Positions 44,204 to 63,026 of a stretch of DNA of 64,000 nucleotides are shown one piece after another. A program made the position numbers and the translations under genes. Source of the DNA: Bacteroidota bacterium (GTDB lineage: Bacteria > Bacteroidota > Ignavibacteria > Palsa-1295); assembly GCA_018266755.1 (NCBI GenBank), contig JAFDZW010000005.1, forward strand, positions 967,233 to 1,031,232. Reading direction: 5' to 3'. Position 1 is the stretch's first letter; every line of letters begins with the position of its first letter. A model generated the notes under the pieces. That model saw nothing but the letters and a program-made list of their open reading frames with translations, had not been told where the DNA came from and did not search any database.

Positions 44204-44409
44204 ATATCCTCCGTAAGACATTTGTTTACGCCTGCGAAGCTTTTGTTACGGCCACCGGTACGCTCTTCTTCGTGGCAGTCGCCGGAAGTGCGCTGATAAT
44301 CAACCACTTCCGATGTTCAATCGGCCCCATTGGGCCTAACTACTCGCTATTCTTGCAATTAGAATGCCAAACAGAGATGCGGCGTTGACGTATCTTTGTC
44401 CTTGGCAGC

Positions 44410-46242
44410 ATGGCCGATATTTTCATCTCATACTCACGCAACGATTCGGAACAGGCCCTTGCCTTGGTCGATCGATTGCGCGCACATGGAATGACCGTCT
44501 GGATCGACCAGCACGGACTCGAAGCCGCGACGTCGTGGAGCAAGGAGATCGCGAACGCGCTGCAACAGTGCGATGTGATGCTCCTGCTGCTCTCCTCGAC
44601 GGCAGTGAGTTCGGTGAATGTCGCAAAAGAACTCTCTGCCGCATCCCAGCTCCATAAACGCATCGTCCCTGTCCAGCTCGAGCGTGTCGAACTGCAAGGC
44701 GAATTCCTCTACCATCTATCGGGGCTGCAGCGCGCGAAATACGACGACTTCGATTCGATCCTGCGGGCGGTGGCCAAAACAGATCAGGAAGTCTCACCCA
44801 ATACAACGAACTCGACCGAGCAAGCCCCGCCTCGTGCCCGAAAGACACGGCTTCGGGCTATCGTTGCTGCTTCGATCATTCTGGTGCTCGGCGCCGTAGG
44901 CTACTTCGCGTTCCGCCCGAGTTCATCCGGCAGTACGGCGAGCACGGTCAAGACGCTGTTGGTTCTGCCGTTCGAGAGTCTGAGCGCCGACAAAGAGAAC
45001 GAGTACTTCGCCGATGGCATGACGGCCACGCTAATCGATATGCTTGTCCCCGTGACCGACCTGCAGGTGGCCGACCGCAGCACGTCCATGGAATTCAAAT
45101 CGTCGAAGCGGGACGTCAAAGAAATCTCAAAACTGGTCGGATGCCGCTATATCGTCAACGGCACCGTGCAGCGTGAGGCCGACCGCATTTTGATCAATGC
45201 CCAAATGTCCGATGCCGAAACGGGATCGGTGCTCTTCAGCAAGTCCTTCTTTGGCTCATCACGCGATCTGTTCCAGTTGCAGCAACAGATCGCGCAAAAC
45301 ATTGTCGTAGAACTCCAACTGTCGCTTTCTACCGATTCGGTGTATGTGCCGCTGGGCGGGAAGCCCGCCAGTCCGGAAGCCTGGGACCTGTGCATGAGAG
45401 CTGACTACGAAGAGAGCCACAACCGCATCGATTCCTCGATCGCATTGTACGTACGTGCTACACAGTTTTCCCCATACTACGCACATCCGTATCTCCAGGC
45501 CGCGCGTGAATATGGCAACAAGTACATGGGCGACACCACCGCCACGCGGTCATTGGTGCTGGCAGACTCGTTTCTGGCGATCGGACGCAAACTTGATACC
45601 GCCCAACTATATTCGCATTTTGTTGGCAGTTGGATCGCAACGGTTCATCATGATTACGACCGAGCGATCTCCGAAGCGACCGCGTATCTGAAGAAGCAGC
45701 CCAGGCGCTCAGGCGGCTATTATCTGTTGGCTCTGGCATACGCTACTTCAAAACAATACGGCCTTGCTGCCGACAATTTCCTCGAGTCACTGAAGCGGGA
45801 TCCGACTGCGCCGCAAGACCGGTTCATGGTACTCTACTGTCTGTGGTTTGCGCATGATACCGTGCGATTGCATCAACAAGCGGCAGCGTCTATCCCGATC
45901 TTCGAAGCATGGCTCAAGTGGCACCCGGACGACAAATCCGTCAGCAACAATAGCATCCCGCTGGCATTGGTATGGTCCGGCCGAGGCGATGAAGCCTGCA
46001 AGCGGATGGAAGATCTGCTCAGGACCCCGAACGTCGACTCGCAGTACGTCCTGAATACCGCAGCGATCAGCGCCCTCAGTGGTAAGCTCGACCGAGCGAT
46101 GGAGATCATGCGGGGCAAGATCGCCCGCTCCGGCGTGCAGAGCGTCGACTTCGAACGCCCCTTCTTCGATAATCTCCGCAACCTCCCGGAATTTCAGTCA
46201 TGGGTAAAGCAGAAGGAAGCACTACCGAAGAAGCATGGCTGA
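44410..46242 (+). CDS. TIR-domain protein, paralog A: TIR – TM helix – TolB-N-terminal-like domain – TPR region
   Basis: 'MADIFISYSRNDSEQALALVDRLRAHGMTVWIDQHGLEAATSWSKEIANALQQCDVMLLLLSSTAVSSVNVAKEL' is a TIR_2-like domain. It is the only paralog with a hydrophobic segment 'LRAIVAASIILVLGAVGYFAF'. 'LLVLPFESLSADKENEYFADG...RYIVNGTVQ' is a TolB_N-like domain. Confidence 0.8.
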   Translation: MADIFISYSRNDSEQALALVDRLRAHGMTVWIDQHGLEAATSWSKEIANALQQCDVMLLLLSSTAVSSVNVAKELSAASQLHKRIVPVQLERVELQGEFLYHLSGLQRAKYDDFDSILRAVAKTDQEVSPNTTNSTEQAPPRARKTRLRAIVAASIILVLGAVGYFAFRPSSSGSTASTVKTLLVLPFESLSADKENEYFADGMTATLIDMLVPVTDLQVADRSTSMEFKSSKRDVKEISKLVGCRYIVNGTVQREADRILINAQMSDAETGSVLFSKSFFGSSRDLFQLQQQIAQNIVVELQLSLSTDSVYVPLGGKPASPEAWDLCMRADYEESHNRIDSSIALYVRATQFSPYYAHPYLQAAREYGNKYMGDTTATRSLVLADSFLAIGRKLDTAQLYSHFVGSWIATVHHDYDRAISEATAYLKKQPRRSGGYYLLALAYATSKQYGLAADNFLESLKRDPTAPQDRFMVLYCLWFAHDTVRLHQQAAASIPIFEAWLKWHPDDKSVSNNSIPLALVWSGRGDEACKRMEDLLRTPNVDSQYVLNTAAISALSGKLDRAMEIMRGKIARSGVQSVDFERPFFDNLRNLPEFQSWVKQKEALPKKHG

Positions 46243-47965
46243 TATTTTCATCTCGTACTCCCGCAACGACTCCGAGCAGGCTCTTGCCTTAGCCGAGCAA
46301 CTGCGCGCGAACGGATTGGACGTCTGGATCGACCAGCATGGCATCGAAGGGGCAACGAGTTGGAGCAAGGAGATCGCTAATGCGCTACAGGCCTGTCACA
46401 CCATGCTGCTGTTGCTGTCGCCCACCGCTGTTGCATCGAAGAATGTCGCGAAGGAACTCTCGGTCGCAACACAACTAAATAAGCATATTGTCCCGGTTCA
46501 GGTCGTTCGAACGACGCTTGAAGGCGAGTTCCTCTACCATCTCTCTGCGCTGCAACGCGTCAAGATAGCAGACGTAGATGCAATTCTCCGTGCGATCGCC
46601 GGCACTGCGCAGGATCGACCGGTGCGTCACGCACCTAAACCGATCGATGAACGGAAGTCGCTGATGATCCTGCCGTTCAAGGATCTCTCTCCGACAGCCG
46701 ACAACGGCTGGTTCGCCGATGGGATGGTCAGCGAACTCATCGACTCCCTTTCGCATATCAAGTCATTGCGGTTGGTGGACAAACAGACGACGAACGAGTA
46801 CAAGACCTATCAGGGCCACCTCGCCGACTATGCCCGCGAAATGGGCATCCGATTCTTCGTACAAGGCGACGTCCGGAAGTTCGGCGACCAGATCAAGATC
46901 TCGTGCACCTTGCTCGACATCGATACTGCCGATCACTTATGGCAGATCTCCCATAAGGGGACGATGTCCGACATCTTCGACATGCAGGAAGAGCTTGCGA
47001 GAAAAGTGGTCGATGGTCTGAAGCTGCATCTGCTCGCATCGGAAGAGAAGAAGCTTTCAAGCCGCGGCACCTCGAATGCCGAAGCGTATGAGATGTACTT
47101 GAAGGCCGAGGAATTCTATGACAAAGACACGAAAGTCTCAGTAGAATACGCCATGAAGGCGATCGAACGAAGCCTGGAGTTGGACCCAGATTTCCCGCAA
47201 GCGATGCTGCGGCGTGCGATCATTCTTGTTCGTTACCAACACGGATTTGGGGGTAGTGCGGAAATGCTCGATGAAGCCGAAGCCCTATTTGAAAGGGCAA
47301 AGAAAAAGCTCTCCCCTTCCGACGATTGGCGTGTTCTCGCCGGTCCGGGTATTCTGGCAATGGCGCGCGGCAATTTTGCATTGGCCGAATCGATCGCTCG
47401 TGAGAATGTCTCGATCGATCCGAACGATTATTACAGGCACAATGCACTGGCGTATTGTCTGTTCCTTCAAGGTCGGTACGAAGAGGTGCTCGTCGAACAT
47501 GAAGCATGTCTTGCGATCGTTCCTGAATCCTACAAATGTGCGCGCCAGATCGTCATGATGGCATGGAATATGGATCGGCCCGACCTCAAAGCTGATTATG
47601 CCCGGCGATTCATTCATCTGTTCCGGCGGAGAATGCAGCTCATGCCGAATGACGATGAAGCCTCCGTTCTCTATGGATTGTTACTGTTCTACCTCGGCCG
47701 CAGAGACGATGCACTCAGTCATCTCGACACGATCAGTGACGATCATATCACCGACGAATTGTCTTTTCGAATCCTCGCATGCCTTGCGGCACTTCTTGGC
47801 AGACCGGAGCGAGCAATCCGGTCGATGCAGTTGAGTGCTGAGATGGATCTGAACGAATGGCACCTGGCCTTGCTTAATAAGTCGGAGCTCGATTCGCTCA
47901 GGGACAGAGAAGACTTCCGTCGATTGGCAGAAGCTTGGAAAGCACGGTTGACGTCCAATGGCTGA
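46235..47965 (+). CDS. TIR-domain protein, paralog B (TIR – TolB_N-like – TPR), soluble
   Basis: 'MADIFISYSRNDSEQALALAEQLRANGLDVWIDQHGIEG', 'MILPFKDLSPTADNGWFADG'. The start ATG overlaps the upstream stop (ATGGCTGA). Confidence 0.8.
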   Translation: MADIFISYSRNDSEQALALAEQLRANGLDVWIDQHGIEGATSWSKEIANALQACHTMLLLLSPTAVASKNVAKELSVATQLNKHIVPVQVVRTTLEGEFLYHLSALQRVKIADVDAILRAIAGTAQDRPVRHAPKPIDERKSLMILPFKDLSPTADNGWFADGMVSELIDSLSHIKSLRLVDKQTTNEYKTYQGHLADYAREMGIRFFVQGDVRKFGDQIKISCTLLDIDTADHLWQISHKGTMSDIFDMQEELARKVVDGLKLHLLASEEKKLSSRGTSNAEAYEMYLKAEEFYDKDTKVSVEYAMKAIERSLELDPDFPQAMLRRAIILVRYQHGFGGSAEMLDEAEALFERAKKKLSPSDDWRVLAGPGILAMARGNFALAESIARENVSIDPNDYYRHNALAYCLFLQGRYEEVLVEHEACLAIVPESYKCARQIVMMAWNMDRPDLKADYARRFIHLFRRRMQLMPNDDEASVLYGLLLFYLGRRDDALSHLDTISDDHITDELSFRILACLAALLGRPERAIRSMQLSAEMDLNEWHLALLNKSELDSLRDREDFRRLAEAWKARLTSNG

Positions 47966-49703
47966 TATTTTTATCTCATACTCGCGCCACGATTCGGAGC
48001 AGGCTCTTGGTTTGGTCGCTCACTTGCGCGCGCAGGGTGTGGATGTCTGGATCGACCAGCACGGCATCGAAGGGGCGGCGAGTTGGAGCAAGGAGATCGC
48101 CAACGCACTGGAATCCTGCCATACGATGCTCCTGCTGCTTTCGCCGACGGCTGTCACATCGGAGAACGTTGCGAAGGAATTGGCGGCCGCGACGCAGCTC
48201 AAGAAACGCATTGTCCCGGTACAGGTCATCCGCACTGCCCTCAGCGGTGAATTTCTCTATCATCTCTCCGGCCTGCAGCGCGTGAAGATCGCGGACGTCG
48301 ACGGCATTCTGCGTGCGATCAATACGAGTAAGTCGTCGGCCATCCCGATTCAGCCGAAGGCTGTACAACCTGTTGACGAGCGCAAGAGCCTCATGATTCT
48401 GCCGTTCAAGGATCTCTCCCCGACCGCCGATAACGGCTGGTTCGCCGACGGCATCGTCAGCGAACTCATCGACTCGCTCTCGCGCGTGAAGTCACTGCGA
48501 TTGGTAGATAAACAGACAACGAGCGAGTACAAGACCTATCAAGGTCATTTAGCTGATTATGCTCGCGAGATGCGCATTCGCTACTTCCTGCAGGGCGACG
48601 TTCGGAAGTTCGGCGATCAGATCAAGATCTCTTGCACGTTGCTCGATATCGACACCGCCGATCACTTATGGCAGATCTCCCACAAAGGGACGATGTCCGA
48701 TATCTTCGACATGCAGGAAGAACTTGCGAGAAAAGTGGTCGATGGGCTGAAGGTGCACCTGCTCGCATCGGAAGAGAAGAAGCTTGCGAACCGGGGTACG
48801 TCGAATGCCGAAGCGTATGAGATGTACTTGAAATCCGCAGAGTTCTTCGGCAAGCACACCAAGGTCGGCACGGAGCATGCGCTCGCCTCGATCAGGCGTG
48901 CGCTGGAGCTCGACCCCAACTTTCCACAGGCCATGCTTCGCTGTGCGATCATTCTGATCACATTGCATCAACATTTTGGATGGCCGGCCAACGTTCTGGA
49001 TGAGGCAGACCGTCTGCTTGAGGCTGCGCGGCTGGTGCTTTCCCCTACCGATGACTGGCGGGTGTTGGGGACACACGCGTTGCGATTGTGGGTATCCGGC
49101 GATCCTGATGCAGCCGAAGCATTGATGCGTGAGAACCTTCGCATCGATCCGGCGGACACGGATCGCCTCAACCAGCTCGGAGTCTTCCACTCGGTGCAGC
49201 ATCGGTTTTCAGAAGCGTTGGTCGAATTCGAAGCAATATTCGCCCTCACCCCAGATTCCTATCGCGCCGCCAGAACGTTGATCGGGACAGCATGGGCACT
49301 TCGAGATCGCGACCGCAAAGTGCAGTACGCACACCAGTTTTTCGATCTCGTGGTTGCGCGCATGAGCACCATGCCGGATGATGACGATGCTCGTATCGTC
49401 TATGGGCTGTTGCTGGTCTATCAAGGCAGGATCGACGAAGCACGGCAACAGCTCCATGCATTTCCGGACGATCACATCGTCATCGAAGAATCCTACCGCA
49501 ACCTTGCCGGGCTCGCCGCGATGGTCGGTGAAGGCGACCGCGCCATTCGTCTCTTGCAGACGTTCACCGAGCGGTTCGGGACAACGCTCACTGCTGAGCA
49601 TCTGCTGTGGTTTAGTGATCAGGAGTTCGAACCCATCAGCGATCGAGAAGAGTTTATTCGCCTCGAAGAAGAGTGGACACGCCGCGTACATTCTAATGGC
49701 TGA
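47958..49703 (+). CDS. TIR-domain protein, paralog C. Very similar to B across the TIR and TolB_N-like domains and divergent in the C-terminal TPR region
   Basis: 'MADIFISYSRHDSEQALGLVAHLRAQGVDVWIDQHGIEG'. Same ATGGCTGA junction at both ends. Confidence 0.8.
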   Translation: MADIFISYSRHDSEQALGLVAHLRAQGVDVWIDQHGIEGAASWSKEIANALESCHTMLLLLSPTAVTSENVAKELAAATQLKKRIVPVQVIRTALSGEFLYHLSGLQRVKIADVDGILRAINTSKSSAIPIQPKAVQPVDERKSLMILPFKDLSPTADNGWFADGIVSELIDSLSRVKSLRLVDKQTTSEYKTYQGHLADYAREMRIRYFLQGDVRKFGDQIKISCTLLDIDTADHLWQISHKGTMSDIFDMQEELARKVVDGLKVHLLASEEKKLANRGTSNAEAYEMYLKSAEFFGKHTKVGTEHALASIRRALELDPNFPQAMLRCAIILITLHQHFGWPANVLDEADRLLEAARLVLSPTDDWRVLGTHALRLWVSGDPDAAEALMRENLRIDPADTDRLNQLGVFHSVQHRFSEALVEFEAIFALTPDSYRAARTLIGTAWALRDRDRKVQYAHQFFDLVVARMSTMPDDDDARIVYGLLLVYQGRIDEARQQLHAFPDDHIVIEESYRNLAGLAAMVGEGDRAIRLLQTFTERFGTTLTAEHLLWFSDQEFEPISDREEFIRLEEEWTRRVHSNG

Positions 49704-51438
49704 TATTTTCATCTCATACTCACGCAAAGACCTCGACCAAGCGCTTTCGCTTGTCGAACGACTCAAGGCGGCCGGTTTTGATGTCTGGATCGACCGGCAC
49801 GGGATCGAGGGGGCGAATAGTTGGAGCAAGGAGATCGCCAATGCACTCGAATCGGCCTCGATCTTCTTGTTGCTACTCTCCGAATCTTCCGTCGCATCGC
49901 CGAATGTCTCGAAAGAACTCGGCGTCGCGACCCTGCTACAAAAACGGATCGTCCCGCTGCGACTGGACCGTGTCGAACTCCGAGGTGAGTTCTTGTATCA
50001 CTTGGCGAATCTGCAGTACGTTCGGTTCGAGGAGTTCGATGCGCTCGTGAGCGTTTTGAGTGGCAAGCCGACTCCGCGCGGAGTGACACCCGCAAAGAGC
50101 TCGGACGACCGCAAGAGCCTGATGATCCTGCCCTTCGACGACCTCTCGCCTACCGCGGACAACGGCTGGTTCGCCGATGGCATTGTCAGCGAAATGATCA
50201 GCGCTCTTTCGAACGTCAAATCATTGGTCGTCACTGACCCGCAGACGACCAAGGACTTCAAACGCTATAAAGGCGCGCTTCCTGCCTATGCGAAGGAGAT
50301 GTCGATCCGATATTTCGTGCATGGCGATGTGAGGAAGTTCGGGGACAGCATCAAGATCACCGCCCGTCTTCTGGATATTGCGACTGGAGATTACCTGTGG
50401 CAAGAGTCCATGAAAGGCACGATGAGCGACATCTTCGAGATCCAGGAGCATGTAGCGAAAAAGGTGCTTGATGGACTGGCGGCGATCCTTTCGACCGAAG
50501 AGACATCGACACTTTCCACGCACGGAACCAAGAACACCGACGCCTATGAACTATTCTTGAAGGCCTGCGAGTACTATGCACGAAACACGCTGGAAGGATT
50601 TCGACTTACTGCTCAGCTCTGCGACGAAGCGATCCGCCTTGAGCCCGAATATGTTCAGCCGATCAATTACAAGGCGCTCGCACTACTAGCGATCTATCGG
50701 CATTACGAACGAGACCCTCGGCTGTTGGGCGAAGCGGAGCGACTCTGTCAGGAGGCACTGCGGCTCAACGCTGGTTTTCGCCAAGCATACTTCCCTTTGT
50801 CGCAGATACAGTTGTATCGTGGCAAGATCGCTCAAGCAGAGGAGACCGCAATCGAATACATCAGGAAGGCGCCTGATGACTTTCACAGCCATTTCACGCT
50901 CGCTTTCGTCTACGGTCAAAGCAACAACTACTCCAGAGCGATCCCGCTCATGGAAGAAGCGATTCGTCTGCGGCCCGGCGATCTTGTCTTGTTGTGGAAC
51001 CTTGTGGTGGTGTGCGACAGTGCAGGCGCGAAAGAGAAATGCGCTCAGTGGGCTGAAGAAGCACTTCCGTACTTCGAACGCTATACTAAGCTGCATCCCG
51101 ATCATGAAGACAAACGTCTCATTCATGCGGCGCTTCTGCAGATGAGCGGAAGAACGGATGCCGCCCATGCTGCCGCGACAAGGCTCAAGGCCTCTCGAGA
51201 TGCGGTGACTCTCTACAATACTGCCTGTCTCTTTGGGAAGGTCGATGACAAGAACGAAGCACTCGCGACACTCAAAATGTCTATCGAGACAGGGATGAAG
51301 GACGTCGATGCACTAAAGCACTTTCTTGCCGATACTGATCAGGGGGTCGCGTCACTCTCGGGGACCCCGCAATTCGAAGAGGTGCTACGTTTGATTGAAT
51401 CGCTAGAAGGCGAAACCGATCCAAGAACGCATGGCTGA
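49696..51438 (+). CDS. TIR-domain protein, paralog D (TIR – TolB_N-like – TPR)
   Basis: 'MADIFISYSRKDLDQALSLVERLKAAGFDVWIDRHGIEG'. Start trimmed from ORF 49378..51438 to the Met overlapping the stop of C. Confidence 0.8.
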   Translation: MADIFISYSRKDLDQALSLVERLKAAGFDVWIDRHGIEGANSWSKEIANALESASIFLLLLSESSVASPNVSKELGVATLLQKRIVPLRLDRVELRGEFLYHLANLQYVRFEEFDALVSVLSGKPTPRGVTPAKSSDDRKSLMILPFDDLSPTADNGWFADGIVSEMISALSNVKSLVVTDPQTTKDFKRYKGALPAYAKEMSIRYFVHGDVRKFGDSIKITARLLDIATGDYLWQESMKGTMSDIFEIQEHVAKKVLDGLAAILSTEETSTLSTHGTKNTDAYELFLKACEYYARNTLEGFRLTAQLCDEAIRLEPEYVQPINYKALALLAIYRHYERDPRLLGEAERLCQEALRLNAGFRQAYFPLSQIQLYRGKIAQAEETAIEYIRKAPDDFHSHFTLAFVYGQSNNYSRAIPLMEEAIRLRPGDLVLLWNLVVVCDSAGAKEKCAQWAEEALPYFERYTKLHPDHEDKRLIHAALLQMSGRTDAAHAAATRLKASRDAVTLYNTACLFGKVDDKNEALATLKMSIETGMKDVDALKHFLADTDQGVASLSGTPQFEEVLRLIESLEGETDPRTHG

Positions 51439-51550
51439 TATGTTCATCTCGTACTCACACAAAGACCTTGAGCAGGAAATGTCGCTTGTCGAGCGATTCA
51501 TTTCACCAGACGCCCTGATTTTCTCATTCCATCTATCATTATGTCACTGA
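51431..51550 (+). pseudogene. 5' remnant of a further TIR paralog (MADMFISYSHKDLEQEMSLVERF..., 39 codons then stop)
   Basis: Starts at the same ATGGCTGA junction on the stop of paralog D. Keeps ~22 aa of the TIR N-terminus, then diverges and terminates where the BNR gene begins. Confidence 0.6.
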
Positions 51551-53367
51551 AACACCTTGCCCTGATAGTATTGATCTCTTCTGCCCGAATTGCGACGGCG
51601 CAGGAGGTTGCACCGCAGACTCCGGAATCCGACCGTGAACTCAGTCGTGCTCTGAAAGTCGCGAAGCTCGGCGATCGACTCTATCGGGAATGCGACGTAT
51701 TTCGGCGCGTGATCGATCATCAACTATCTCAACAGCCAGCATCGCAAGTATCGAGCGTTCTATCGACCGAACCACTTCAGTCGCTCGGCGACACATCACT
51801 GGATATTACGCATTCCTCTTCAGACGAGTCTGAGACAACCGTCGCGATCAGCCGTACGAATCCAAACATGATCGTTGTCGGGTTCAATGACGCGGCACAA
51901 ATAGCGAATGGGATAGGCATGACCGCCTGCGTTTCCACCGATGCCGGAAATACGTGGTCACGACAGCATTTGCCAAAAGTGAATTTCCACGGAGCAAACG
52001 CGTGGTGCGATCCTATTCTCACGTGCGATGATTCCGGCATGTTCTACTATGCCTTCCTCATCATCACACCCAACATGTCGCTGAGTGATATTATGGTCGG
52101 GCGCAGCAAAGACGGTCGGAATTGGGTGCTGGGGTCACCGGTTGTCGGTGACACGATCGCACCAACCAAACTGCAGGATAAACCCACGATCGCTGTCGAT
52201 CGCGATCCGAACAGCCCATACCACGGGAGGCTCTATATTGCATGGTCGGAATATCCGTCACTCGCCGACACATTGTGGGATGGGATCAATTATGTGGCAT
52301 ATAGCGATGATCATGGCGTCAGTTGGTCAAAGCCGTTAGAGTATAGCACCGCATTCGGACACTTTGCAACACTGCGTATCGGCAAAGGCGGAACGGTGTT
52401 CATTTCTTCGAATAACTTTCGCGACGAGACCGTTGCCTCGTTCGCCGTGGAAGTCTCGCATGACGGCGCTAAGACGTTCTCTGAGTATCCGATCGCGATG
52501 CGACAAAAAGCATATCCCGTCGATCATAATGTCTATATGTATGCCATGTTAAAGGGGTCGAAGGGTTTCCGAATCGACCCCTACATTAGCTTCGATCTCG
52601 ATCCCGAAACAAATGATCTGTTTGCCGTGTACGGATCGTACGACACGATCAAGAAAGCCGCCCGCGAATTCATCGTTCGTTCGACCGACGAAGGCGTGTC
52701 GTGGTCATCCCCCATTCAGGTAGGCGATCCAACGCTCTTAGGACTCGACCATTGTATGCCGTGGGTGAGCTTCGACCCCTCTACAAAAAAGGCATACGTA
52801 ACAATGTATAGTTCTGAAGAGGATACAGCCAATGTGCTTATGCGGAGAGTTCGATACTCCTTCGATACACCAACGAACGCCGAGCCGCTCGGGACCCGAC
52901 TTTTCAACCCACTCCTCGCTTCAGTCGCGACCGGGGGTCGTTGGGCTAATATGGGCGACTATACGTATAGCGATGCCTTCGGTGGCACGTTCGTCGATGT
53001 CTGGGCCGAGAACCGTCCACCCAGCTACAATGACGGCGATGTCTTCGCATACGTTTCTTCACCGGCGACACACGCCGGTGTGATCCGTCAACTCAATGCA
53101 CCAACGATCGCGATCAGTGACCTCAGCCCGAATCCGGTGCATGGAGATCGGATCAGCTTCACACTGACCGGCGACCGTTCGAGGGAAGTACTCATTCATG
53201 TGCAAGACGTTCTGGGGCACGAAGTCTTGAGTGCCACTGCAAAGCTGGATGCAGGTACTCTCACAGATGTAACACTCGATATCGGAACGCTCGCCGCCGG
53301 GAGCTATCTCATAGTTATCGATGGCAATGACGAATCTGTCTGCCGGCGTTTTGTCATTGTTCGATAA
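51541..53367 (+). CDS. T9SS cargo: BNR/Asp-box repeat sialidase-like glycosyl hydrolase, sitting inside the TIR array
   Basis: Signal peptide. Asp-boxes 'STDAGNTWS', 'SDDHGVSWS', 'STDEGVSWS'. C-terminal 'LSPNPVHGD...GSYLIVIDGNDESVCRRFVIVR' T9SS CTD. Confidence 0.7.
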   Translation: MSLKHLALIVLISSARIATAQEVAPQTPESDRELSRALKVAKLGDRLYRECDVFRRVIDHQLSQQPASQVSSVLSTEPLQSLGDTSLDITHSSSDESETTVAISRTNPNMIVVGFNDAAQIANGIGMTACVSTDAGNTWSRQHLPKVNFHGANAWCDPILTCDDSGMFYYAFLIITPNMSLSDIMVGRSKDGRNWVLGSPVVGDTIAPTKLQDKPTIAVDRDPNSPYHGRLYIAWSEYPSLADTLWDGINYVAYSDDHGVSWSKPLEYSTAFGHFATLRIGKGGTVFISSNNFRDETVASFAVEVSHDGAKTFSEYPIAMRQKAYPVDHNVYMYAMLKGSKGFRIDPYISFDLDPETNDLFAVYGSYDTIKKAAREFIVRSTDEGVSWSSPIQVGDPTLLGLDHCMPWVSFDPSTKKAYVTMYSSEEDTANVLMRRVRYSFDTPTNAEPLGTRLFNPLLASVATGGRWANMGDYTYSDAFGGTFVDVWAENRPPSYNDGDVFAYVSSPATHAGVIRQLNAPTIAISDLSPNPVHGDRISFTLTGDRSREVLIHVQDVLGHEVLSATAKLDAGTLTDVTLDIGTLAAGSYLIVIDGNDESVCRRFVIVR

Positions 53368-53382
53368 TTTCCCGAACGACCC

Positions 53383-55116
53383 GTGGCTGATATCTTCATC
53401 TCATACTCACGCAAAGACGCCGAAGCGGCGCTCGCATTAGCGGAGCGTCTGCGCAGTGACGGCGCGAGCGTGTGGATGGATACAGCCGCATTGGCGGCAG
53501 CCGAGACCTGGAGCGCGGAGATCGTCACTGCGATCGAAGGGTGTACGTTCTTCATCGTCCTGATCTCACCGAATGCTGTGGCGAGCAGAAACGTGACCAA
53601 AGAGGTGTCGCTCGCTTCGGAGTCGAAGAAGACGATCATCCCGATCGAGCTCGTGCGGTGCGAACTCAATCCCGCAATGAAGTATGCGCTCGCCGGCCTG
53701 CAGAAGGTGAAGCTCCACGATGAAGTAACACTGCACCGCAGCCTTTCCAAACTGGGACTCGCTCCGGGAGTTCATACTGCACCGTCGGCTCCCCAAGCAG
53801 TAGCATCGCCATCTCGTGCGGACTCTGGCCCCACACGCCTTGCCGTGTTTCCGTTCGAAGATCAATCGCCCACACGCGACCACGAGTGGTTCAGCGATGG
53901 GCTCACCGATGAACTGATCTCGATGCTCAACAAGGTCGATGCGCTGCTCGTACTCGATCGCAACTCGACGCGCGCATATCGCGATGCGAAGATGACGACC
54001 AAGCAGATCGCTCGTGAACTGCAGGTACGATATGTGATCGTCGGTGCCGTCCGCAAAGCGGGCGAGAAGATCAGGGTTCAGGCATCGCTCATCGATCCCG
54101 AGACCGGAAAGGTGCTGTGGGATGAGAAGTTCAACGGCACCATGGACGATATCTTCGAGATCCAGGAGAAGACGGCCCGAGATATTGTCGAAGGACTGAA
54201 GATCACGCTCACCCCGGCAGAACGCAGCTCACTCGATCAGAAGATGACGGACTCGCCCGAGGCATACGAACTGCTCATGCGAGCGAGCCGCAAACTCGAT
54301 GAGGAAATGGATCATGCCGGAGGAACGCGCTTGGCAGAACGCGCCTTGGAGATTGATCCGAACTGTGCCGCAGCCCTTTATCTGATCTCGGTCGCGACGT
54401 CGAACCAATATCGAATCGGTAACCGATCCGATGCGTCACTGCTCGAACGCGAACGCGGACTCGTCAAGCAACTGATGACACTTGCTCCTGAGACGCACTA
54501 TTGTTATATCGCCCGAGCAAATTATTACCTGAACATCGACGAGACGGAGCTCGCCGTGGAAATGGCGGAGCGAGCCGTCAGCGTTAGTCCGAAACGCCCC
54601 CGATCTCACGGTGTGCTTGGGTTTATTTATTCGCGTCTCAATCGTCCGGCCGATGCGGTCAGAGAATTTCGTCGTGCGATCGAGCTCGATCCGAACTCCG
54701 GTACTGATCATGTCAGCCTCTTGACCGTCCTCTTTGTCAGTGGAGCGCCGCTCGAACAATTGCGCGCCCAGTACCCGAACGTCAAACGACACCTTGACGC
54801 ACGGATAGCTGAGTACCCCGACTCGCTCAGGATTCGGACGGAACTGCTGAATGCTGCCATCCAAGCGCAAATCCCGGACGATGCCGTAGCAGTTGCTGAA
54901 GCCATCCTCGCCAGAGGAGATGTGGACGCTGATACCGAATACTGTTGCGCCGAGGCCTTCGTACTCGCCGGCGATCTCGAGCGAGGCCGCACACATCTTC
55001 GCTCCGCGATCGATCGAGGCCAGGACACCTTCACCATTTGGGATGAATCCGGTTTCCTCCCGCTCAACGGCACGCCGGAATACGACTTCCTGGTTGCACA
55101 TATTGCAAGAGACTAA
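53383..55116 (+). CDS. TIR-domain protein, paralog F (TIR – TolB_N-like – TPR). GTG start
   Basis: '(V)ADIFISYSRKDAEAALALAERLRSDGASVWMDTAALAAAETW', 'LAVFPFEDQSPTRDHEWFSDGLTDELI'. Confidence 0.75.
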   Translation: MADIFISYSRKDAEAALALAERLRSDGASVWMDTAALAAAETWSAEIVTAIEGCTFFIVLISPNAVASRNVTKEVSLASESKKTIIPIELVRCELNPAMKYALAGLQKVKLHDEVTLHRSLSKLGLAPGVHTAPSAPQAVASPSRADSGPTRLAVFPFEDQSPTRDHEWFSDGLTDELISMLNKVDALLVLDRNSTRAYRDAKMTTKQIARELQVRYVIVGAVRKAGEKIRVQASLIDPETGKVLWDEKFNGTMDDIFEIQEKTARDIVEGLKITLTPAERSSLDQKMTDSPEAYELLMRASRKLDEEMDHAGGTRLAERALEIDPNCAAALYLISVATSNQYRIGNRSDASLLERERGLVKQLMTLAPETHYCYIARANYYLNIDETELAVEMAERAVSVSPKRPRSHGVLGFIYSRLNRPADAVREFRRAIELDPNSGTDHVSLLTVLFVSGAPLEQLRAQYPNVKRHLDARIAEYPDSLRIRTELLNAAIQAQIPDDAVAVAEAILARGDVDADTEYCCAEAFVLAGDLERGRTHLRSAIDRGQDTFTIWDESGFLPLNGTPEYDFLVAHIARD

Positions 55117-55117
55117 C

Positions 55118-56839
55118 GTGGCAGATATTTTCATTTCATACTCACGCAAAGATTCCGAGCAGGCACTCGCACTTGCCGATCGGCTACGCTCGAGCGGAGC
55201 GGATGTCTGGATGGACACCGCATCGCTGACGGCGGCAGAAACATGGAGCGCGGAGATAGTGTCGGCGATCCGCAGTTGTCACACGTTCATCGTGATGCTC
55301 TCGCCGAATTCGGTCACTTCGAAGAATGTGGTGAAAGAAGTCGGGCTGGCGTCGGAGCGCGACAAACGGATCATCCCGATCGTGCTCGAGCCATGCGTTC
55401 TCAGCGATGCAATGCAGTACGCACTCGCGGGCATTCATCACGTAAAGATCAACGACCGGGACGCATTGGACCGAGCATTAAGCAAGATCGGCCTCGTCGC
55501 AACCACCCCCGTCGCTGAAGCACCGAGCGACCCGGTATCTGCATTCCCCGACAACCTCATTCGCATCGCCGTGCTGCCGTTCGATGACCAATCCCCTGCC
55601 CATGACCACGAATGGTTCAGCGATGGCCTGACCGACGAACTGATCTTGACATTGAATAAGCTCGATGCACTCTTTGTGCTTGACCGGAAATCTTCGCAAC
55701 TCTACAAGGATGCTCGCATCTCCGTGAAGCAGATCGCGGCCGAGCTCAACGTCCGCTACATCATTAGCGGCGCCGTGCGCAAAGCCGGACAGAACATTCG
55801 CGTGCAGGTGTCACTCATAGAGGCGACATCGGGCGTAACGCTCTGGGATGAAAAATTCTCGGGGACGATGGATGACATCTTTGAGATCCAGGAAAGAACC
55901 GCGTTCGACATTGCCGAAGGCTTGAAGCTGAAGCTCACGCCGGCTGAAATGCTCCTGCTCGAAGAAAAGACAACAACATCTTCTGAAGCGTATCGTCTGC
56001 TTCTGCAAGCCCGGGAAAAGAACAACAGCTTCGCCGACAGTGCCGGCGCCATTGAGGATCTCAAGCATGCCATCAGGATCGATCCCGGATTCCTTCCCGC
56101 ATACGCGATACTCTCTGTCGCGTATGCAAACGAATATCGCAGCTCGAACCGTACCAACGCAACCCTCCTCGATCTCTCGAAACGAGCAATGGACGAGATC
56201 AGGCAAATCGATCCGAACTCGCCCTTCTACTATGGTCCATGCGCCAATTACTATCTGAATATCGGCGAGCGCGAACTCGCATTGGACATGGCGAACAAGC
56301 TCGTTGAGCTTCGGCCAAAACAATTTGTGTCGTACGCGATCCTCGGATTCATGCAGGATTCGCTCGGCAACTACCGCGAGGCGATGCGCGCGTTCCAACG
56401 GGCCATCGAGCTCGATCCGGCAACGGCCACGAACTATGTGAAGCTGGCTACCGCGGCGTTCCGACTGGGCGAAATGGATGCGATCGAATGGTGTTGGGAG
56501 AAAGGGCGGCCGTTGTACGAGCGCTTGATCGCAGCACACCCGGAACGGATGTGGGCCAAACTGGAGTACTTGTTTCTCTCCCTCTTTGCTGGGTATGTTG
56601 ACATTGCTGTAGAAATGGCAGAATCGATCGAACGCTTACCTGACCTCCCTCTCGAGACCCATACGCAGCTTGCCGCAGTCTGGATGGCCAATGGCCAGAT
56701 CGAGCGCGGGACCAAAGCGTTACAGTATGCGATCGACGGAGGGTATGTGGCGTTCGAAGGCATGGACCGACGTCTCTATCGCGCGATCGAAGGCACACCG
56801 TTGTACCAGTTCGTCCTCGATCACATTGTACGACCCTGA
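55118..56839 (+). CDS. TIR-domain protein, paralog G (TIR – TolB_N-like – TPR). GTG start. Closest to F
   Basis: '(V)ADIFISYSRKDSEQALALADRLRSSGADVWMDTASLTAAETW', 'IAVLPFDDQSPAHDHEWFSDGLTDELI'. Start inferred inside ORF 54893..56839. Confidence 0.75.
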   Translation: MADIFISYSRKDSEQALALADRLRSSGADVWMDTASLTAAETWSAEIVSAIRSCHTFIVMLSPNSVTSKNVVKEVGLASERDKRIIPIVLEPCVLSDAMQYALAGIHHVKINDRDALDRALSKIGLVATTPVAEAPSDPVSAFPDNLIRIAVLPFDDQSPAHDHEWFSDGLTDELILTLNKLDALFVLDRKSSQLYKDARISVKQIAAELNVRYIISGAVRKAGQNIRVQVSLIEATSGVTLWDEKFSGTMDDIFEIQERTAFDIAEGLKLKLTPAEMLLLEEKTTTSSEAYRLLLQAREKNNSFADSAGAIEDLKHAIRIDPGFLPAYAILSVAYANEYRSSNRTNATLLDLSKRAMDEIRQIDPNSPFYYGPCANYYLNIGERELALDMANKLVELRPKQFVSYAILGFMQDSLGNYREAMRAFQRAIELDPATATNYVKLATAAFRLGEMDAIEWCWEKGRPLYERLIAAHPERMWAKLEYLFLSLFAGYVDIAVEMAESIERLPDLPLETHTQLAAVWMANGQIERGTKALQYAIDGGYVAFEGMDRRLYRAIEGTPLYQFVLDHIVRP

Positions 56840-58383: not shown

Positions 58384-58794
58384 ATGCTCCGCCGATTCAA
58401 CAATAACCCGATCAACAAAGACCGCCGTCGCGAGTTACGCTCGAATCCTACGCGCGCGGAATCAGAATTGTGGCACGGACTTCGCAATCATCGCTCCGGG
58501 TACAAATTCCGCCGCCAGCAAGGGCTCGGGCCATTCATCGTGGATTTCTACTGCCCCGCATTTCATCTCGCGGTAGAAGTCGATGGCGCAACGCATGATT
58601 CGCTCGAGCAACAAGAGTACGATTCGCGAAGGAGCGAATACCTGCGTGCAAATGGAATCGACGCCATCCGCTTCACAGACGGCGAAGTGCTGTGGAGCGT
58701 AGATATCTGCGTAGCGAAGATCGCCGAACGGATCGAAGAGATCAAACGAGGACGTGGTGGCACATCGGAATCAACCACCCCAACCCCGCCTTGA
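58384..58794 (+). CDS. DUF559 endonuclease-domain protein (Vsr/PD-(D/E)xK-like)
   Basis: 'LRSNPTRAESELWHGLRNHRSGYKFRRQQGLGPFIVDFYCPAFHLAVEVDGATH' is the DUF559 signature. The last ~9 codons (STTPTPP*) are encoded by the left end of MITE copy 2. Confidence 0.75.
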   Translation: MLRRFNNNPINKDRRRELRSNPTRAESELWHGLRNHRSGYKFRRQQGLGPFIVDFYCPAFHLAVEVDGATHDSLEQQEYDSRRSEYLRANGIDAIRFTDGEVLWSVDICVAKIAERIEEIKRGRGGTSESTTPTPP

Positions 58795-59590: not shown

Positions 59591-60598
59591 ATGGCACAAA
59601 TTAAGTATCTTACCGCTCTAATCCGAGCCCACGTTGAGGGTGATGAGACTACTTTCAGAAGGCTGGTACTTCAATTGGCATCAATCGAAGCGAGTGCCGG
59701 ACATAGTCATGCTGCACAACAGATTAGAGAAGTACTCGACCAAAGTACCACTAAAGTACTCGGACAGCAAACAGGGAAACCCATTCCCTACGTAAATAGC
59801 CCTGGTACTCGTGTCGATCTCTCAGGACTACTTCATGCGAGCAATCGAGAGGAGCGTCTTGGAGATATCGTTCTGGCTCCTGCTACGAGACACACTCTTG
59901 AGCGCGTATTGGAAGAATGGCGTAACAGCTCTCTGTTGGAATCCCACAGCCTAAGGAAACGCAACAAACTCCTTTTAGTCGGACCTCCCGGATGTGGCAA
60001 GACTTTCTCTGCGAGAGTTCTAGCTGGTGAACTGCACCTTCCACTTTTCGTGGTAAGACTAGATGGTCTCATTTCCCGGTTTCTAGGAGAAACGGCCAAC
60101 CATCTTCGGAATATTTTTGAGGCAATGCAATTGACTCCTGGCGTATACCTGTTTGACGAATTCGATGCCATCGGAACAAACCGTGGAGAGGGCAGGGACG
60201 TTGGTGAAATCAGACGAGTATTGAGCGCATTCCTTCTTCTTCTGGAAAACTTCGCGGGCAACAGTCTGATAATCGCTGCTACAAATTATAAGGACTTGCT
60301 GGATCATGCTCTGTTTAGGCGATTCGATGATGTTATTGAGTATCCCCTTCCATCACCACACGATTTGGAATCCCTATTCAAACTTAAGGTCTCCGGTTTC
60401 GTCCATGCTCCGATCGAGTTTCCCGAGCTTGCAAAACTTGCTACCGGTATGAGTTATGCAGATGCTACAAAGTGTGTGATGGAAGCTATGAAGAATACTG
60501 TCATTGCAAAAAAGTCGAAGCTCACCGAATCTTCAATTGTCAACGCAATCCTGGAAAGGAAAGGATTGAAATCTCAGGAACAATATCCCTCCAGCTAG
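59591..60598 (+). CDS. AAA+ ATPase (classical AAA clade). Candidate IetA-like defence ATPase
   Basis: Walker A 'LLVGPPGCGKTF', Walker B 'VYLFDEFDAIG', sensor-1 'IIAATN' and an arginine finger. Lower G+C than the flanks. Confidence 0.85.
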   Translation: MAQIKYLTALIRAHVEGDETTFRRLVLQLASIEASAGHSHAAQQIREVLDQSTTKVLGQQTGKPIPYVNSPGTRVDLSGLLHASNREERLGDIVLAPATRHTLERVLEEWRNSSLLESHSLRKRNKLLLVGPPGCGKTFSARVLAGELHLPLFVVRLDGLISRFLGETANHLRNIFEAMQLTPGVYLFDEFDAIGTNRGEGRDVGEIRRVLSAFLLLLENFAGNSLIIAATNYKDLLDHALFRRFDDVIEYPLPSPHDLESLFKLKVSGFVHAPIEFPELAKLATGMSYADATKCVMEAMKNTVIAKKSKLTESSIVNAILERKGLKSQEQYPSS

Positions 60599-60611
60599 TG
60601 ATTACTAGCGA

Positions 60612-63026
60612 ATGGCACGCAGATTTGAGCTAAAACACCTATCCCTTCCCGATCCTCTAAAAGAGGGCTACAAAGCTCCCCAATCCGGTCGGAAGATTGA
60701 AGTTCCTAGTCGTGATCCTGAAACTCACGCATCCGAACTAAGGAGACAATTAAGAGAAATAAAGCGGGATGCCCTTCCAGGGGACAGGATCGTTGCTATC
60801 AAAGGAAGTCCGTCTCTAATTGCCAAGTTGGACTCCCTAACTGATCGATCAAGAGATCAGGAGGTTCTGCAAACGCGACAGAGCGATAATAACAACCTAA
60901 CTGCCATCGTCCGATTTTCGAGGCGTGGAATTGGAAAGTTCGAGCGGAAGCTGGACGCTTACCAATCCGGATCGAACTTGACGACGAAGAAGCCGAAAAA
61001 CAACGATCTATTTGCAAGCATAGAAGGGATTACCCAAGCTCTACTAGAAGACCTGTTCGTTGGCGATCAAACCATTCTCCGGTCCGATCCAGCGATTCCA
61101 CTATGGTGGGAGTTGTGGATTAGGGGTGGAGTATTAGAACCTCAACTAGCCAAACAGGCTCGGACTAAACTCTCCGAACTGGCAGACTCCTTAGATGTCT
61201 CCATCGAAATGGAGAAGAGGATAGTTCTTTCCGAAAGACAGATTTTGCTCGTTGAATTCACACTTGACCAACTGCGATGGTTGGTAGGAGAGTATGAAGA
61301 CATTGCAGAAATTAGAAAGCCGAGTAGGACTGTAGTACAGAGTCTCTCACACGCCAGACACGTGATTGCTGACATTTCTGCACTAGCTAATCGGATTGAA
61401 CCACCTAGTGATCTTATGGCCCCAAGCGTCGCCCTCATCGACACAGGCTTGAACGATGGACATTCGCTGCTAAACAAGATAATTGCGCAGGATGGTCTAT
61501 TTTCAATAGACTCAGCTTCGGAATCGACAAGTGACTCATACCCTACAGGTCATGGAACTCCAGTGGCAGGGGTGGCGGCATACAGTGACCTTGCGGGACT
61601 GATTGGTGGTGGTGGACATGAAAAACTTGACCATTGGATCGAGTCTGTCCGAGTCCCGCGAGACGAGGATGGTTCTTCACGACACCTTTGGGGTGCAACA
61701 ACAAAAGCCGCGATAGATAAGATTGAGCAGGGGCAGCCACGTCAACGAGTTTTCTGCTTGGCATGGGGCGCCGAAACTGACACCCCAACATACAGAACAT
61801 CATGGTCCTCGGAGGTTGACATGCTGGCATACAACCGGGGAAAAGGACGTGTCGTCATGGTTAGCGGTGGTAACCTCCCTGATGGCAGCAACGATCATGG
61901 ACGGATTCAACGCCCGACGGACTATCCACTACGCAACATGACAACCTTTCTACACGACCCTTCATTTGCTCTCAACTGCTTATGTGTCGGGGGATATACT
62001 GAACTCTGTGACATTCTCCCTCCCCGACCGAATCTTGAAGCACTTGCAAAACTCGGGCAGTTATCACCTTTTTCCAGGACCGGCCAAGCTGGAAAACCGA
62101 TCAAACCAGATATTGTCTGTGAAGGCGGAAATCTTGTGTGGGATGGCTATTTCCTAAGCAACAATGAGGATGGACTTAGCATCTTAACGACTAGTGCAGA
62201 TATACAGCGAGGCCCTTTCGAAAATGCATCGGGTACGAGTCCTGCTGTAGCTGCAGGTGCTCGTATTGCGGCCAAGGTGTGGGCCTCCAATACCAAACTG
62301 AGCCCACAATCCATTAGAGGACTAGTTGTGCATTCCGCCTCATGGACCGATGCAATGAACGAGCAATTTCCAGTCAAGGCGGACAGACTTCGTGCATTCG
62401 GATACGGTGTCCCTAATCTTGGGTTCGCGTGCAGAAGCGCAATATCAGCGACCACACTAATATCCGAGGATACAATATTTCTTCGGAAAACCGTCGAAAA
62501 TCGGACCGTTGATGCTAGAGAGGTTTGTTTCTATGATCTTCCGTGGCCAAGACATTTCTTAGAGTCGATCCCAGACACAGAGGTAGAAATTAGAGTCACA
62601 CTATCATACTTTGCTGAACCCAAATCCGGGGATGGCGCAGACTATCAAGGTGCTGCACTTCGATGGCGGATGCAAGGGCCGGTCGAAAAGGAATTGGAGT
62701 TTCTCAAGCGTGTGAATGCATCAAGAAGAGATGACGACGTTTCTACAGGCTTTAGTGATCCAATTCACTGGGAAATCGGTTACCAGTCCCGCAGCAAGGG
62801 TTCGGTGCAGTCTGATCGCTGGGTAACAACGGCTACCCAGCTTGCTGCCTGTGGAAAGATTGCTGTCTTTCCCAAATATGGCTGGTGGGACTATAACCGG
62901 GTCAAACGCCCCCACCAGGAGCTGGCATTTTCTCTTATCGTCTCCGTCACAGCAAAGGACGAGTCTATCGACCTGTATTCAGCGATTGAGAATGAGTTGA
63001 GAATCCCAGTTATTCTTGAAACCTAG
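60612..63026 (+). CDS. S8 subtilisin-like serine peptidase. Candidate IetS-like partner
   Basis: Catalytic triad motifs 'VALIDTGLN' (Asp), 'GHGTPVAGVAAY' (His) and 'GTSPAVAAGA' (Ser). Follows the ATPase with a 13-bp gap. Confidence 0.85.
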   Translation: MARRFELKHLSLPDPLKEGYKAPQSGRKIEVPSRDPETHASELRRQLREIKRDALPGDRIVAIKGSPSLIAKLDSLTDRSRDQEVLQTRQSDNNNLTAIVRFSRRGIGKFERKLDAYQSGSNLTTKKPKNNDLFASIEGITQALLEDLFVGDQTILRSDPAIPLWWELWIRGGVLEPQLAKQARTKLSELADSLDVSIEMEKRIVLSERQILLVEFTLDQLRWLVGEYEDIAEIRKPSRTVVQSLSHARHVIADISALANRIEPPSDLMAPSVALIDTGLNDGHSLLNKIIAQDGLFSIDSASESTSDSYPTGHGTPVAGVAAYSDLAGLIGGGGHEKLDHWIESVRVPRDEDGSSRHLWGATTKAAIDKIEQGQPRQRVFCLAWGAETDTPTYRTSWSSEVDMLAYNRGKGRVVMVSGGNLPDGSNDHGRIQRPTDYPLRNMTTFLHDPSFALNCLCVGGYTELCDILPPRPNLEALAKLGQLSPFSRTGQAGKPIKPDIVCEGGNLVWDGYFLSNNEDGLSILTTSADIQRGPFENASGTSPAVAAGARIAAKVWASNTKLSPQSIRGLVVHSASWTDAMNEQFPVKADRLRAFGYGVPNLGFACRSAISATTLISEDTIFLRKTVENRTVDAREVCFYDLPWPRHFLESIPDTEVEIRVTLSYFAEPKSGDGADYQGAALRWRMQGPVEKELEFLKRVNASRRDDDVSTGFSDPIHWEIGYQSRSKGSVQSDRWVTTATQLAACGKIAVFPKYGWWDYNRVKRPHQELAFSLIVSVTAKDESIDLYSAIENELRIPVILET

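Follow-up and report, generated by a model that had tools for sequence, protein, structure and literature searches.

In the mammalian tandem paralogues TLR1 and TLR6, gene conversion keeps a TIR-containing block alike and the ligand-binding parts are orthologous (Kruithof et al. 2007, PMC2077338). Here we analysed a 64,000-nt stretch of DNA from a Bacteroidota bacterium (the window; contig JAFDZW010000005.1 of assembly GCA_018266755.1), which carries at positions 44410-56839 a tandem array of genes for TIR-TolB_N-TPR proteins, made up of six full-length paralogues (A, B, C, D, F and G) plus one relic. We put the probability at about 0.72 that these genes are mosaics, in which N-terminal modules have been exchanged or homogenised among paralogues and the TPR sensors are old, orthologous and under purifying selection.

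We liken the array to TLR1/TLR6 because it, too, contains a defined block that is closer between paralogues than between orthologues; synonymous divergence is lowered there, and trees of the separate domains disagree. In both cases the block that includes the TIR domain is closer between paralogues than between orthologues, the sensor is orthologous and divergent, and independent events are seen in several lineages. The array proteins differ in being bacterial, predicted to be cytoplasmic or single-pass, and built with TPR rather than LRR sensors and an N-terminal TIR domain; they also come in arrays of 6-8 or more members with stop/start overlaps, and no TLR2-like partner is known. Among bacterial systems, BcTir/Tpr of Bacillus cereus resembles the array, by description, in joining TIR-type NAD+ chemistry with a modulating TPR domain, and is reported to have anti-phage activity (bioRxiv 10.1101/2023.05.26.542521). 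In contrast to the array, it is a two-gene system whose TPR protein has its own N-terminal glycosidase, with no TolB_N domain and no tandem arrangement.

The evidence for exchange centres on B and C, which are exactly the two genes, both on the + strand, of the interval 46235-49703. Gene coordinates are positions in the window, and codon and residue numbers in comparisons of B with C are those of B.

46235..47965, + strand: paralogue B, 576 aa; TIR_2 at aa 4-110, diverged linker at 121-140, TolB_N-like domain at ~141-270 aa, TPR at ~280-576 aa
46670..47101, + strand: homogenised (gene-conversion) block in B, codons ~146-289; it takes in the TolB_N-like domain as well as the first TPR helix
47102..47965, + strand: TPR sensor region of B, with 47% amino acid identity to C and saturated synonymous sites; closest to L002_2, P0004 and P0006
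47958..49703, + strand: paralogue C, 581 aa, with the architecture of B; its orthologue is P0007 on locus L001
48399..48830, + strand: matching homogenised block in C, codons ~148-291

As a first-pass annotation of this DNA had noticed, the divergence of B and C is uneven and not uniform when they are aligned over their whole length: they share 85% of amino acids up to residue 289 of B and 47% from residue 290 to its end at 576. In 30-residue windows, identity is 77-90% in the TIR domain, 87-100% at residues 141-285, ~60% at residues 286-330 and 35-53% beyond residue 330. The linker at residues 121-140 carries indels and is 25-42% identical, and identity in the windows falls to ~25-60% there. 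The coordinates given by the annotation and the shared peptide that it quoted are exact, the peptide being present in both proteins, and the strong gradient that it described stands; the near-identity that it extended over the N-terminal two-thirds covers half of the protein and is interrupted by the linker. Contrary to its statement that the proteins are hard to align beyond about residue 330, the last 246 residues are collinear and 44% identical (BLASTP E 2e-65), with 4 gap positions. F and G, which had been said to behave in the same way, show the same gradient at the protein level, weaker than in B and C (64% identity in the N-terminal half vs 34% in the TPRs), and none of the paralogue pairs in the window departs from the rule that N-terminal halves resemble each other more than TPRs do.

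Synonymous sites locate the exchange more closely. For each pair we determined dN/dS, the ratio of nonsynonymous to synonymous divergence (dS), by the Nei-Gojobori method (NG86) with Jukes-Cantor (JC) correction, together with the fraction of identical residues encoded by the same codon, for which only positions with an identical residue in both proteins were scored. From the codon usage of the paralogues, the same-codon fraction expected by chance is 0.37-0.40. Between B and C it is 0.64 for codons 1-50, 0.39 for codons 51-120, 0.68 for codons 141-290 and 0.39 from codon 291 to the end, the difference between codons 141-290 and the TPRs being highly significant (Fisher's exact p = 3.6e-6). 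Likewise, dS is 1.4 in the TIR domain (dN/dS 0.07), 0.77 in TolB_N (dN/dS 0.05) and saturated in the TPRs (dN/dS 0.16). The breakpoint search that the annotation had suggested found two sharp maximum-chi-square breakpoints, one between B codons 145 and 146 and one between codons 288 and 289; for each, 0/2,000 permutations did as well (p<0.0005). At its 3' edge the block contains identical runs of 27 and 32 nt that end at codon 289, where synonymous and replacement differences both resume. These data support the exchange of a ~430-bp block, B codons 146-288, by gene conversion or recombination. In other old paralogue pairs the TolB_N same-codon fraction is mostly near chance (B/P0003 0.39, F/G 0.44, C/D 0.47). 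The likeness of F and G to B and C does not extend to a block of reduced synonymous divergence: their same-codon fraction is 0.41-0.55 throughout, compared to a chance level of ~0.40, and since their synonymous sites are saturated everywhere, constraint alone explains this pair.

The orthologue of C, P0007, comes from an independent sample and dates the exchange. C and P0007 share 86-87% of amino acids in the TPRs (dS ~0.5, more exactly 0.55; dN/dS 0.15), 98% in TolB_N (dS 0.72-0.74) and 74% in the TIR domain (dS 1.41). In TolB_N, B, C and P0007 are roughly equidistant (dS 0.77 for B-C, 0.58 for B-P0007 and 0.74 for C-P0007), and the TPRs of B are synonymously saturated against both C and P0007; the common ancestor of the B and C blocks therefore lies close to the split of the two genomes, long after that of the TPRs. 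Bootstrapped neighbour-joining trees, built per domain, place B differently at its two ends. The TolB_N tree unites B, C and P0007 with 100% bootstrap, and the TPR tree joins C with P0007 (100%) and B with L002_2, P0004 and P0006 (78%). A groups in the TPR tree with its orthologues L002_1 and L009_4 (100%). Consistent with the position of B, its TPR identity to L033_1 exceeds that to C in 99.7% of column bootstraps, and L002_2 follows an A orthologue in its own contig, like B follows A in the window. From this position and the trees, B probably belongs to a P0003-type lineage in which sequence of the C lineage has replaced the TolB_N block. In scans of genome and metagenome contigs, relatives of B and C reached 55% at most.

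Three orthologue pairs, drawn from short metagenomic contigs, allowed the domains to be compared, with the following dS values.

C and P0007: TPR 0.55, TolB_N 0.72, TIR 1.41
L009_6 and L016_1: TPR 0.09, TolB_N 0.32, TIR 0.69
L009_2 and L004_1: TPR 0.19, TolB_N 0.53, TIR 1.62

All three pairs show dS climbing from the 3' to the 5' end of the gene, lowest in the TPRs and highest in the TIR domain, with a spread between domains of up to 8-fold within one pair. The TPRs are 86-95% identical between orthologues, with dN/dS of 0.15-0.32, and TPR lineages are common to several genomes as stable orthogroups.

TIR domains, in turn, are frequently closer to those of other paralogues in the same genome than to those of orthologues. 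The TIR domain of C is 82% identical to that of B vs 74% to that of its own orthologue, an order that holds in 98.8% of bootstraps, and the TIR domain of A is 75% identical to those of B and C vs 64% to that of its orthologue L002_1 (97.9% of bootstraps); in the remaining domains A and B share 33% (TolB_N) and 17% (TPR). P0002, P0008 and P0010 match B at 88-90% identity in the TIR domain but at 46%, 35% and 21%, respectively, in the TPRs. Across the gathered loci, 16 of 26 proteins have a TIR domain nearer to a same-genome paralogue than to the TPR orthologue. The most extreme module exchange that we observed involves two genes on different contigs of Ca. Kapaibacterium metagenome-assembled genome (MAG) ant_bin.634 (L009 9679-11535 and L011 6686-8536), both encoding proteins anchored by a transmembrane (TM) helix: their TIR domains are 97% identical (dS 0.69), their TolB_N domains 43% and their TPRs 18%. 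P0002 and its downstream neighbour have different TIR types: the neighbour resembles the P0009/P0012 type, with which the TIR domain of P0002 shares only 46% identity.

These results bear on several other explanations. The first-pass annotation had modelled the proteins as a conserved TIR effector beside hypervariable TPRs, shaped by diversifying selection or by repeat-shuffling recombination as in Avs and NLR sensors. The N-terminal bias of all window paralogue pairs fits that model, and a defence gene pair 2.7 kb downstream (IetA/IetS) provides a weak defence-island context for it. Between orthologues, however, the TPRs are the part with the lowest dS and the TIR domain is the least conserved, the TPR orthogroups are stable across genomes, and a STAND NTPase is lacking. 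TPR dN/dS indicates purifying selection both between B and C and between orthologues, with C-P0007 at 86% identity and a ratio of 0.15 and the two further pairs alike, so that the TPRs are not hypervariable and diversifying selection on them finds no support. A diversity-generating or repeat-shuffling mechanism was rejected on the collinearity of the B and C TPRs, with their 4 gap positions. The annotation was right to invoke recombination, as the block of low dS and the incongruent domain trees show, but its effect is the reverse of the one suggested: it homogenises or swaps N-terminal modules and does not diversify the C-terminal repeats. We judge the hypervariable-sensor model very unlikely. 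An explanation without any recombination, by differing purifying selection on the domains of one ancient duplication, would account for the dN/dS of the B and C TIR and TolB_N domains being much lower than that of the TPRs, for the saturation of F and G, and for the mildly raised TolB_N codon identity in some old pairs. It fails to accommodate the abrupt change in synonymous similarity at two breakpoints, the fully supported grouping (100% bootstrap) of the B TolB_N domain with C and P0007 against the different placement of its TPRs, the A and C TIR domains that are nearer to same-genome paralogues than to their own orthologues, and the up to 8-fold differences in domain dS within one orthologue pair; it is unlikely to be correct. 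Assembly was also considered, since the source is a MAG and tandem paralogues are difficult to assemble, and the N-terminal likeness might reflect a collapsed or chimeric repeat in the contig. The B and C blocks nevertheless differ at ~10-14% of nucleotides with reading frames intact, C is matched in an independent sample at 98% (TolB_N) and 86% (TPR) of amino acids, and comparable arrays occur in many assemblies. We rejected assembly collapse on these grounds, and the chance that such an artefact underlies the pattern is negligible.

A different question is whether conversion, if real, matters to the proteins or is a functionally neutral by-product of tandem, highly constrained and similar DNA. 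The tracts do coincide with the most constrained, hence most similar, DNA; the conserved gene start at the 8-nt stop/start overlap ATGGCTGA and the 5' codons offer substrates for recombination; and scars of unequal exchange are present (51431-51550 in the window and 1178-1278 in L001). Yet exchange has also taken place between copies on separate contigs of one MAG, and neighbours do not simply share TIR types, as P0002 and its downstream gene show. Conversion may as well be neutral as selected, though we give neutrality somewhat less than even odds. Against the mosaic reading itself, several points must be counted. Outside the block dS approaches saturation, and NG86 with JC correction is a crude estimator; the neighbour-joining trees were built on short domains, with the key TPR node at 78%; orthology was taken from short metagenomic contigs, and the contig scans found no close relative of B; and the source is a MAG. 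In addition, the TolB_N same-codon fraction is somewhat raised in the old pairs B/D (0.58) and A/D (0.62), and a small part of the B/C signal may therefore be codon constraint.

The domain assignments of TIR and TolB_N-like made by the annotation were borne out. All six paralogues match TIR_2 (PF13676) at 77-85 bits compared to a cutoff of 28 (E 1e-21 to 5e-24), and among PDB sequences the bacterial TIR 7uxr matches best, with the SARM1 TIR domain next. E74 is present in 6/6 paralogues and invariant across 58 family members. In sequence alignment it falls opposite the Glu of the SARM1 WVHKE (VHKE) motif, which we take to be catalytic E642, and it also aligns to the bacterial TIR structure 7uxr. 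The array's TIR domains carry the predicted catalytic glutamate of the NADase-competent subset. They share TIR_2 with a conserved Glu with the bacterial TIR NADase defence systems (Thoeris ThsB, TIR-SAVED, TIR-APAZ/SPARTA, AbTir/BtTir); unlike in those systems, the array's sensor is fused in cis, and its orthogroups extend across Ignavibacteriota/Kapabacteria instead of being patchy.

An AlphaFold2 model of B has a mean predicted local distance difference test score (pLDDT) of 91. A domain-only AlphaFold2 model of the middle domain (pLDDT 85) matched TolB 2w8b in Foldseek (E 2.7e-7; query TM-score, TMq, 0.64), as well as PelC, GNA1162 and LpoB, and the domain has a weak Pfam match to FlgO; it is predicted from these models to have a TolB_N fold. 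The C-terminal repeats match TPR_19 at 44-46 bits vs a cutoff of 25, and TPR_1, TPR_2 and TPR_8 score above their cut-offs in F and G. Run against PDB sequences, a profile returned mainly TPR proteins, and CadC was not among its matches. By their profiles the repeats are confirmed as genuine TPRs.

The likeness of the sensor to CadC rests on the fold and on local profile matches. The model of B, with its alpha/beta and helical sensor, superposes on the periplasmic domain of E. coli CadC (Foldseek; 3LY7, 3LY8, 3LY9 and 3LYA; target TM-score, TMt, 0.63-0.66) with a root-mean-square deviation of 4.6-4.9 over ~300 columns, and the NCBIfam CadC model matches F (E 6.9e-10, aa 154-397), A (3e-7, aa 126-332) and B (3e-5) locally, at 23-38 bits vs a family cut-off of 400. 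Paralogue A further resembles CadC/ToxR-like proteins in its order of output domain, single TM helix and sensor; the helix spans aa 150-168, with a hydrophobicity of 2.39 and the motif RARKTRLR just before it. Differences from CadC are the TIR output in place of a winged-helix DNA-binding domain, the longer run of genuine TPRs in the helical part, and the lack of a TM helix in every paralogue but A, which also holds for 112/112 full-length B-like homologues examined. The solved structural relatives of the sensor module are all periplasmic, yet the five paralogues B, C, D, F and G have no TM helix. Elsewhere, the TolB_N and TPR module follows a protein-kinase domain (Pkinase) in Acidobacteria and a LuxR-type helix-turn-helix (HTH) domain (GerE) in a Hyphomicrobiales MAG; found behind such different domains, it acts as a sensor unit that can be carried from one protein type to another. 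The kinase- and HTH-linked versions in these other phyla are soluble.

NB-ARC, NACHT and AAA profiles gave no match to any of the six paralogues, none of which contains a Walker A motif. Lacking a STAND NTPase and having a middle domain of TolB_N fold, the proteins are therefore not STAND, NLR or Avs proteins, and the analogy with Avs and plant NLR sensors drawn in the annotation falls away. What they share with STAND/NLR proteins (Avs, TIR-NLR, TNL) is an N-terminal TIR domain, a C-terminal repeat sensor, multigene clusters and recombination between paralogues; they differ in that they have no NTPase, their repeats are not hypervariable and recombination homogenises the effector end. We found no description of a TIR-TolB_N-TPR family in the literature. 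On present sequence evidence it appears to be an uncharacterised and abundant TIR architecture of Ignavibacteriota/Kapabacteria that has no NTPase.

In the account that we favour, the array is an old, translationally coupled tandem set of six paralogues plus a relic, each protein being a single-chain fusion of an N-terminal TIR effector to a TolB_N/TPR sensor. The TPR sensors of B and C split long ago, each then kept by purifying selection as its own orthologous lineage. N-terminal likeness has two causes, very strong purifying selection on TIR and TolB_N (dN/dS 0.02-0.07) and module exchange among paralogues by gene conversion or recombination. The ~430-bp block was transferred between the lineages of C and B around the time when the window genome split from that of P0007, and TIR domains have been swapped repeatedly among paralogues within one genome. 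As to function, binding of a ligand by the TPR sensor may control TIR self-association and, through it, the cleavage of NAD+ or the synthesis of a signalling nucleotide, and we infer that the proteins would act as ligand-gated TIR NADases. A may sense outside the membrane, in the periplasm, and the other paralogues may sense the cytoplasm. Alike TIR modules could let several sensors feed one output, possibly as mixed oligomers; the same reasoning has been applied to TLR1/TLR6 gene conversion. The bolder proposal that the paralogues do co-assemble into mixed TIR oligomers, with gene conversion keeping TIR/TolB_N interchangeable across a vertically inherited receptor panel (one member membrane-spanning, several cytoplasmic, and all with conserved CadC-like/TPR ligand sensors of their own), seems doubtful; were it true, the co-assembling array would be the bacterial counterpart of heteromeric Toll-like receptor signalling, and its TIR pathway would answer to a sensor of the ToxR/CadC type, not to a STAND NTPase or a partner protein.

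If the favoured account holds, it would mean that the outcome known from TLR1/TLR6 is now seen in bacteria, with the effector end as the mobile part and the sensors stable. A conserved effector beside divergent repeats is not by itself the sign of an arms-race sensor. Should the TIR domains be active NADases, the proteins would offer simple single-chain models for the ligand gating of TIR assembly, and the array would serve as a natural experiment on why the signalling domains of co-resident receptors stay alike.

The remaining features of the array are as follows.

44410..46242, + strand: paralogue A, 610 aa; TIR, single TM helix, TolB_N-like domain and TPR
49696..51438, + strand: paralogue D, 580 aa; its ATG lies within a longer open reading frame (ORF)
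51431..51550, + strand: relic 5' end of a seventh paralogue (MADMFISYSHKDLEQEMSLVER...), 40 codons, overlapping the stop of D via ATGGCTGA
51541..53367, + strand: BNR-like gene with a Por_Secre_tail domain, as in type IX secretion system (T9SS) cargo; interrupts the array and is not a member of the family
53383..55116, + strand: paralogue F, 577 aa; GTG start
55118..56839, + strand: paralogue G, 573 aa; GTG start
46235-46242, 47958-47965, 49696-49703 and 51431-51438, + strand: the 8-nt stop/start overlap ATGGCTGA

At the A/B, B/C and C/D junctions the TGA stop of the upstream gene lies within the ATG-GCT-GAT start of the next, an operon-like arrangement that implies translational coupling. The same overlap is present in other genomes, where arrays have from three to at least 8 members. 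It constrains the C-terminus of the upstream protein to ...NG or ...HG, and for this reason such an ending, found in 34/112 homologues, marks non-terminal array members. The BNR/T9SS-cargo gene starts inside the relic, which is a deletion or insertion scar; the array was therefore formerly longer, or has been interrupted. A second scar lies at 1178-1278 of L001, after a thioredoxin-reductase-like gene, where a TIR start of ~30 codons (MVSNLFISYSRKDAELA..., ending in HG and a stop) is fused directly upstream of the orthologue of C. Paralogue B is 100% identical to the NCBI MAG protein P0001 (TIR domain-containing protein, Bacteroidetes bacterium), encoded on a 1.8-Mb contig, and the named relatives of the family belong to Candidatus Kapabacteria, Ignavibacteriota and Ca. 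Kapaibacterium MAGs. Among the fetched loci, Ignavibacteriota and Ca. Kapaibacterium/Kapabacteria MAGs are closest to the source MAG.

The gene starts themselves share more codons than expected by chance. In the first ~150 nt of each paralogue (for example 46235-46384 and 47958-48107) the same-codon fraction is 0.54-0.72 vs 0.40, and this excess over codons 1-50 holds between distant paralogues and across genomes. It could stem from short 5' conversion tracts or from mRNA selection for re-initiation at the overlap. The serine codons in the shared MADIFISYS gene start are TCN.

The case for a defence role of the array is circumstantial, and consists of TIR chemistry of the kind used by defence systems and of the pair downstream. 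That pair, at 59591-63026 of the window and 2.7 kb downstream of paralogue G, is complete, with IetA (AAA ATPase, PADLOC E 2e-76) and IetS (S8 subtilase, E 7e-45), and has a local GC content of 0.48-0.52 vs ~0.55. Between it and the array lies a small ORF (58384-58794) that by eye has the look of a DUF559/Vsr-like endonuclease (…SELWHGLRN…FRRQ…FIVDFYCP…LAVEVDG…). PADLOC matches to the paralogues fall on the TIR region only, and no PADLOC or NCBIfam model matches them over their full length: ThsB_TIR is borderline (19-22 bits vs a cutoff of 21.2), and NCBIfam ThcB4 reaches 35-52 bits vs 220. As these matches are at the level of the TIR domain, we assigned the array to no known defence system. 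Among the 10 immediate neighbours scanned with PADLOC there was no ThsA, SAVED, APAZ/Argonaute or cyclase partner, and one minor match, mad2, falls on a methyltransferase domain. The stability of the orthogroups across genera sets the array apart from a typical mobile defence island.

Long ORFs on the reverse strand, for example at 44340-44663, 49209-49841, 53304-53750 and 54436-55218, all contain SLREYEMKISA. We rejected them as genes, since this peptide arises from reading the opposite strand of the conserved gene starts that encode MADIFISYSR.

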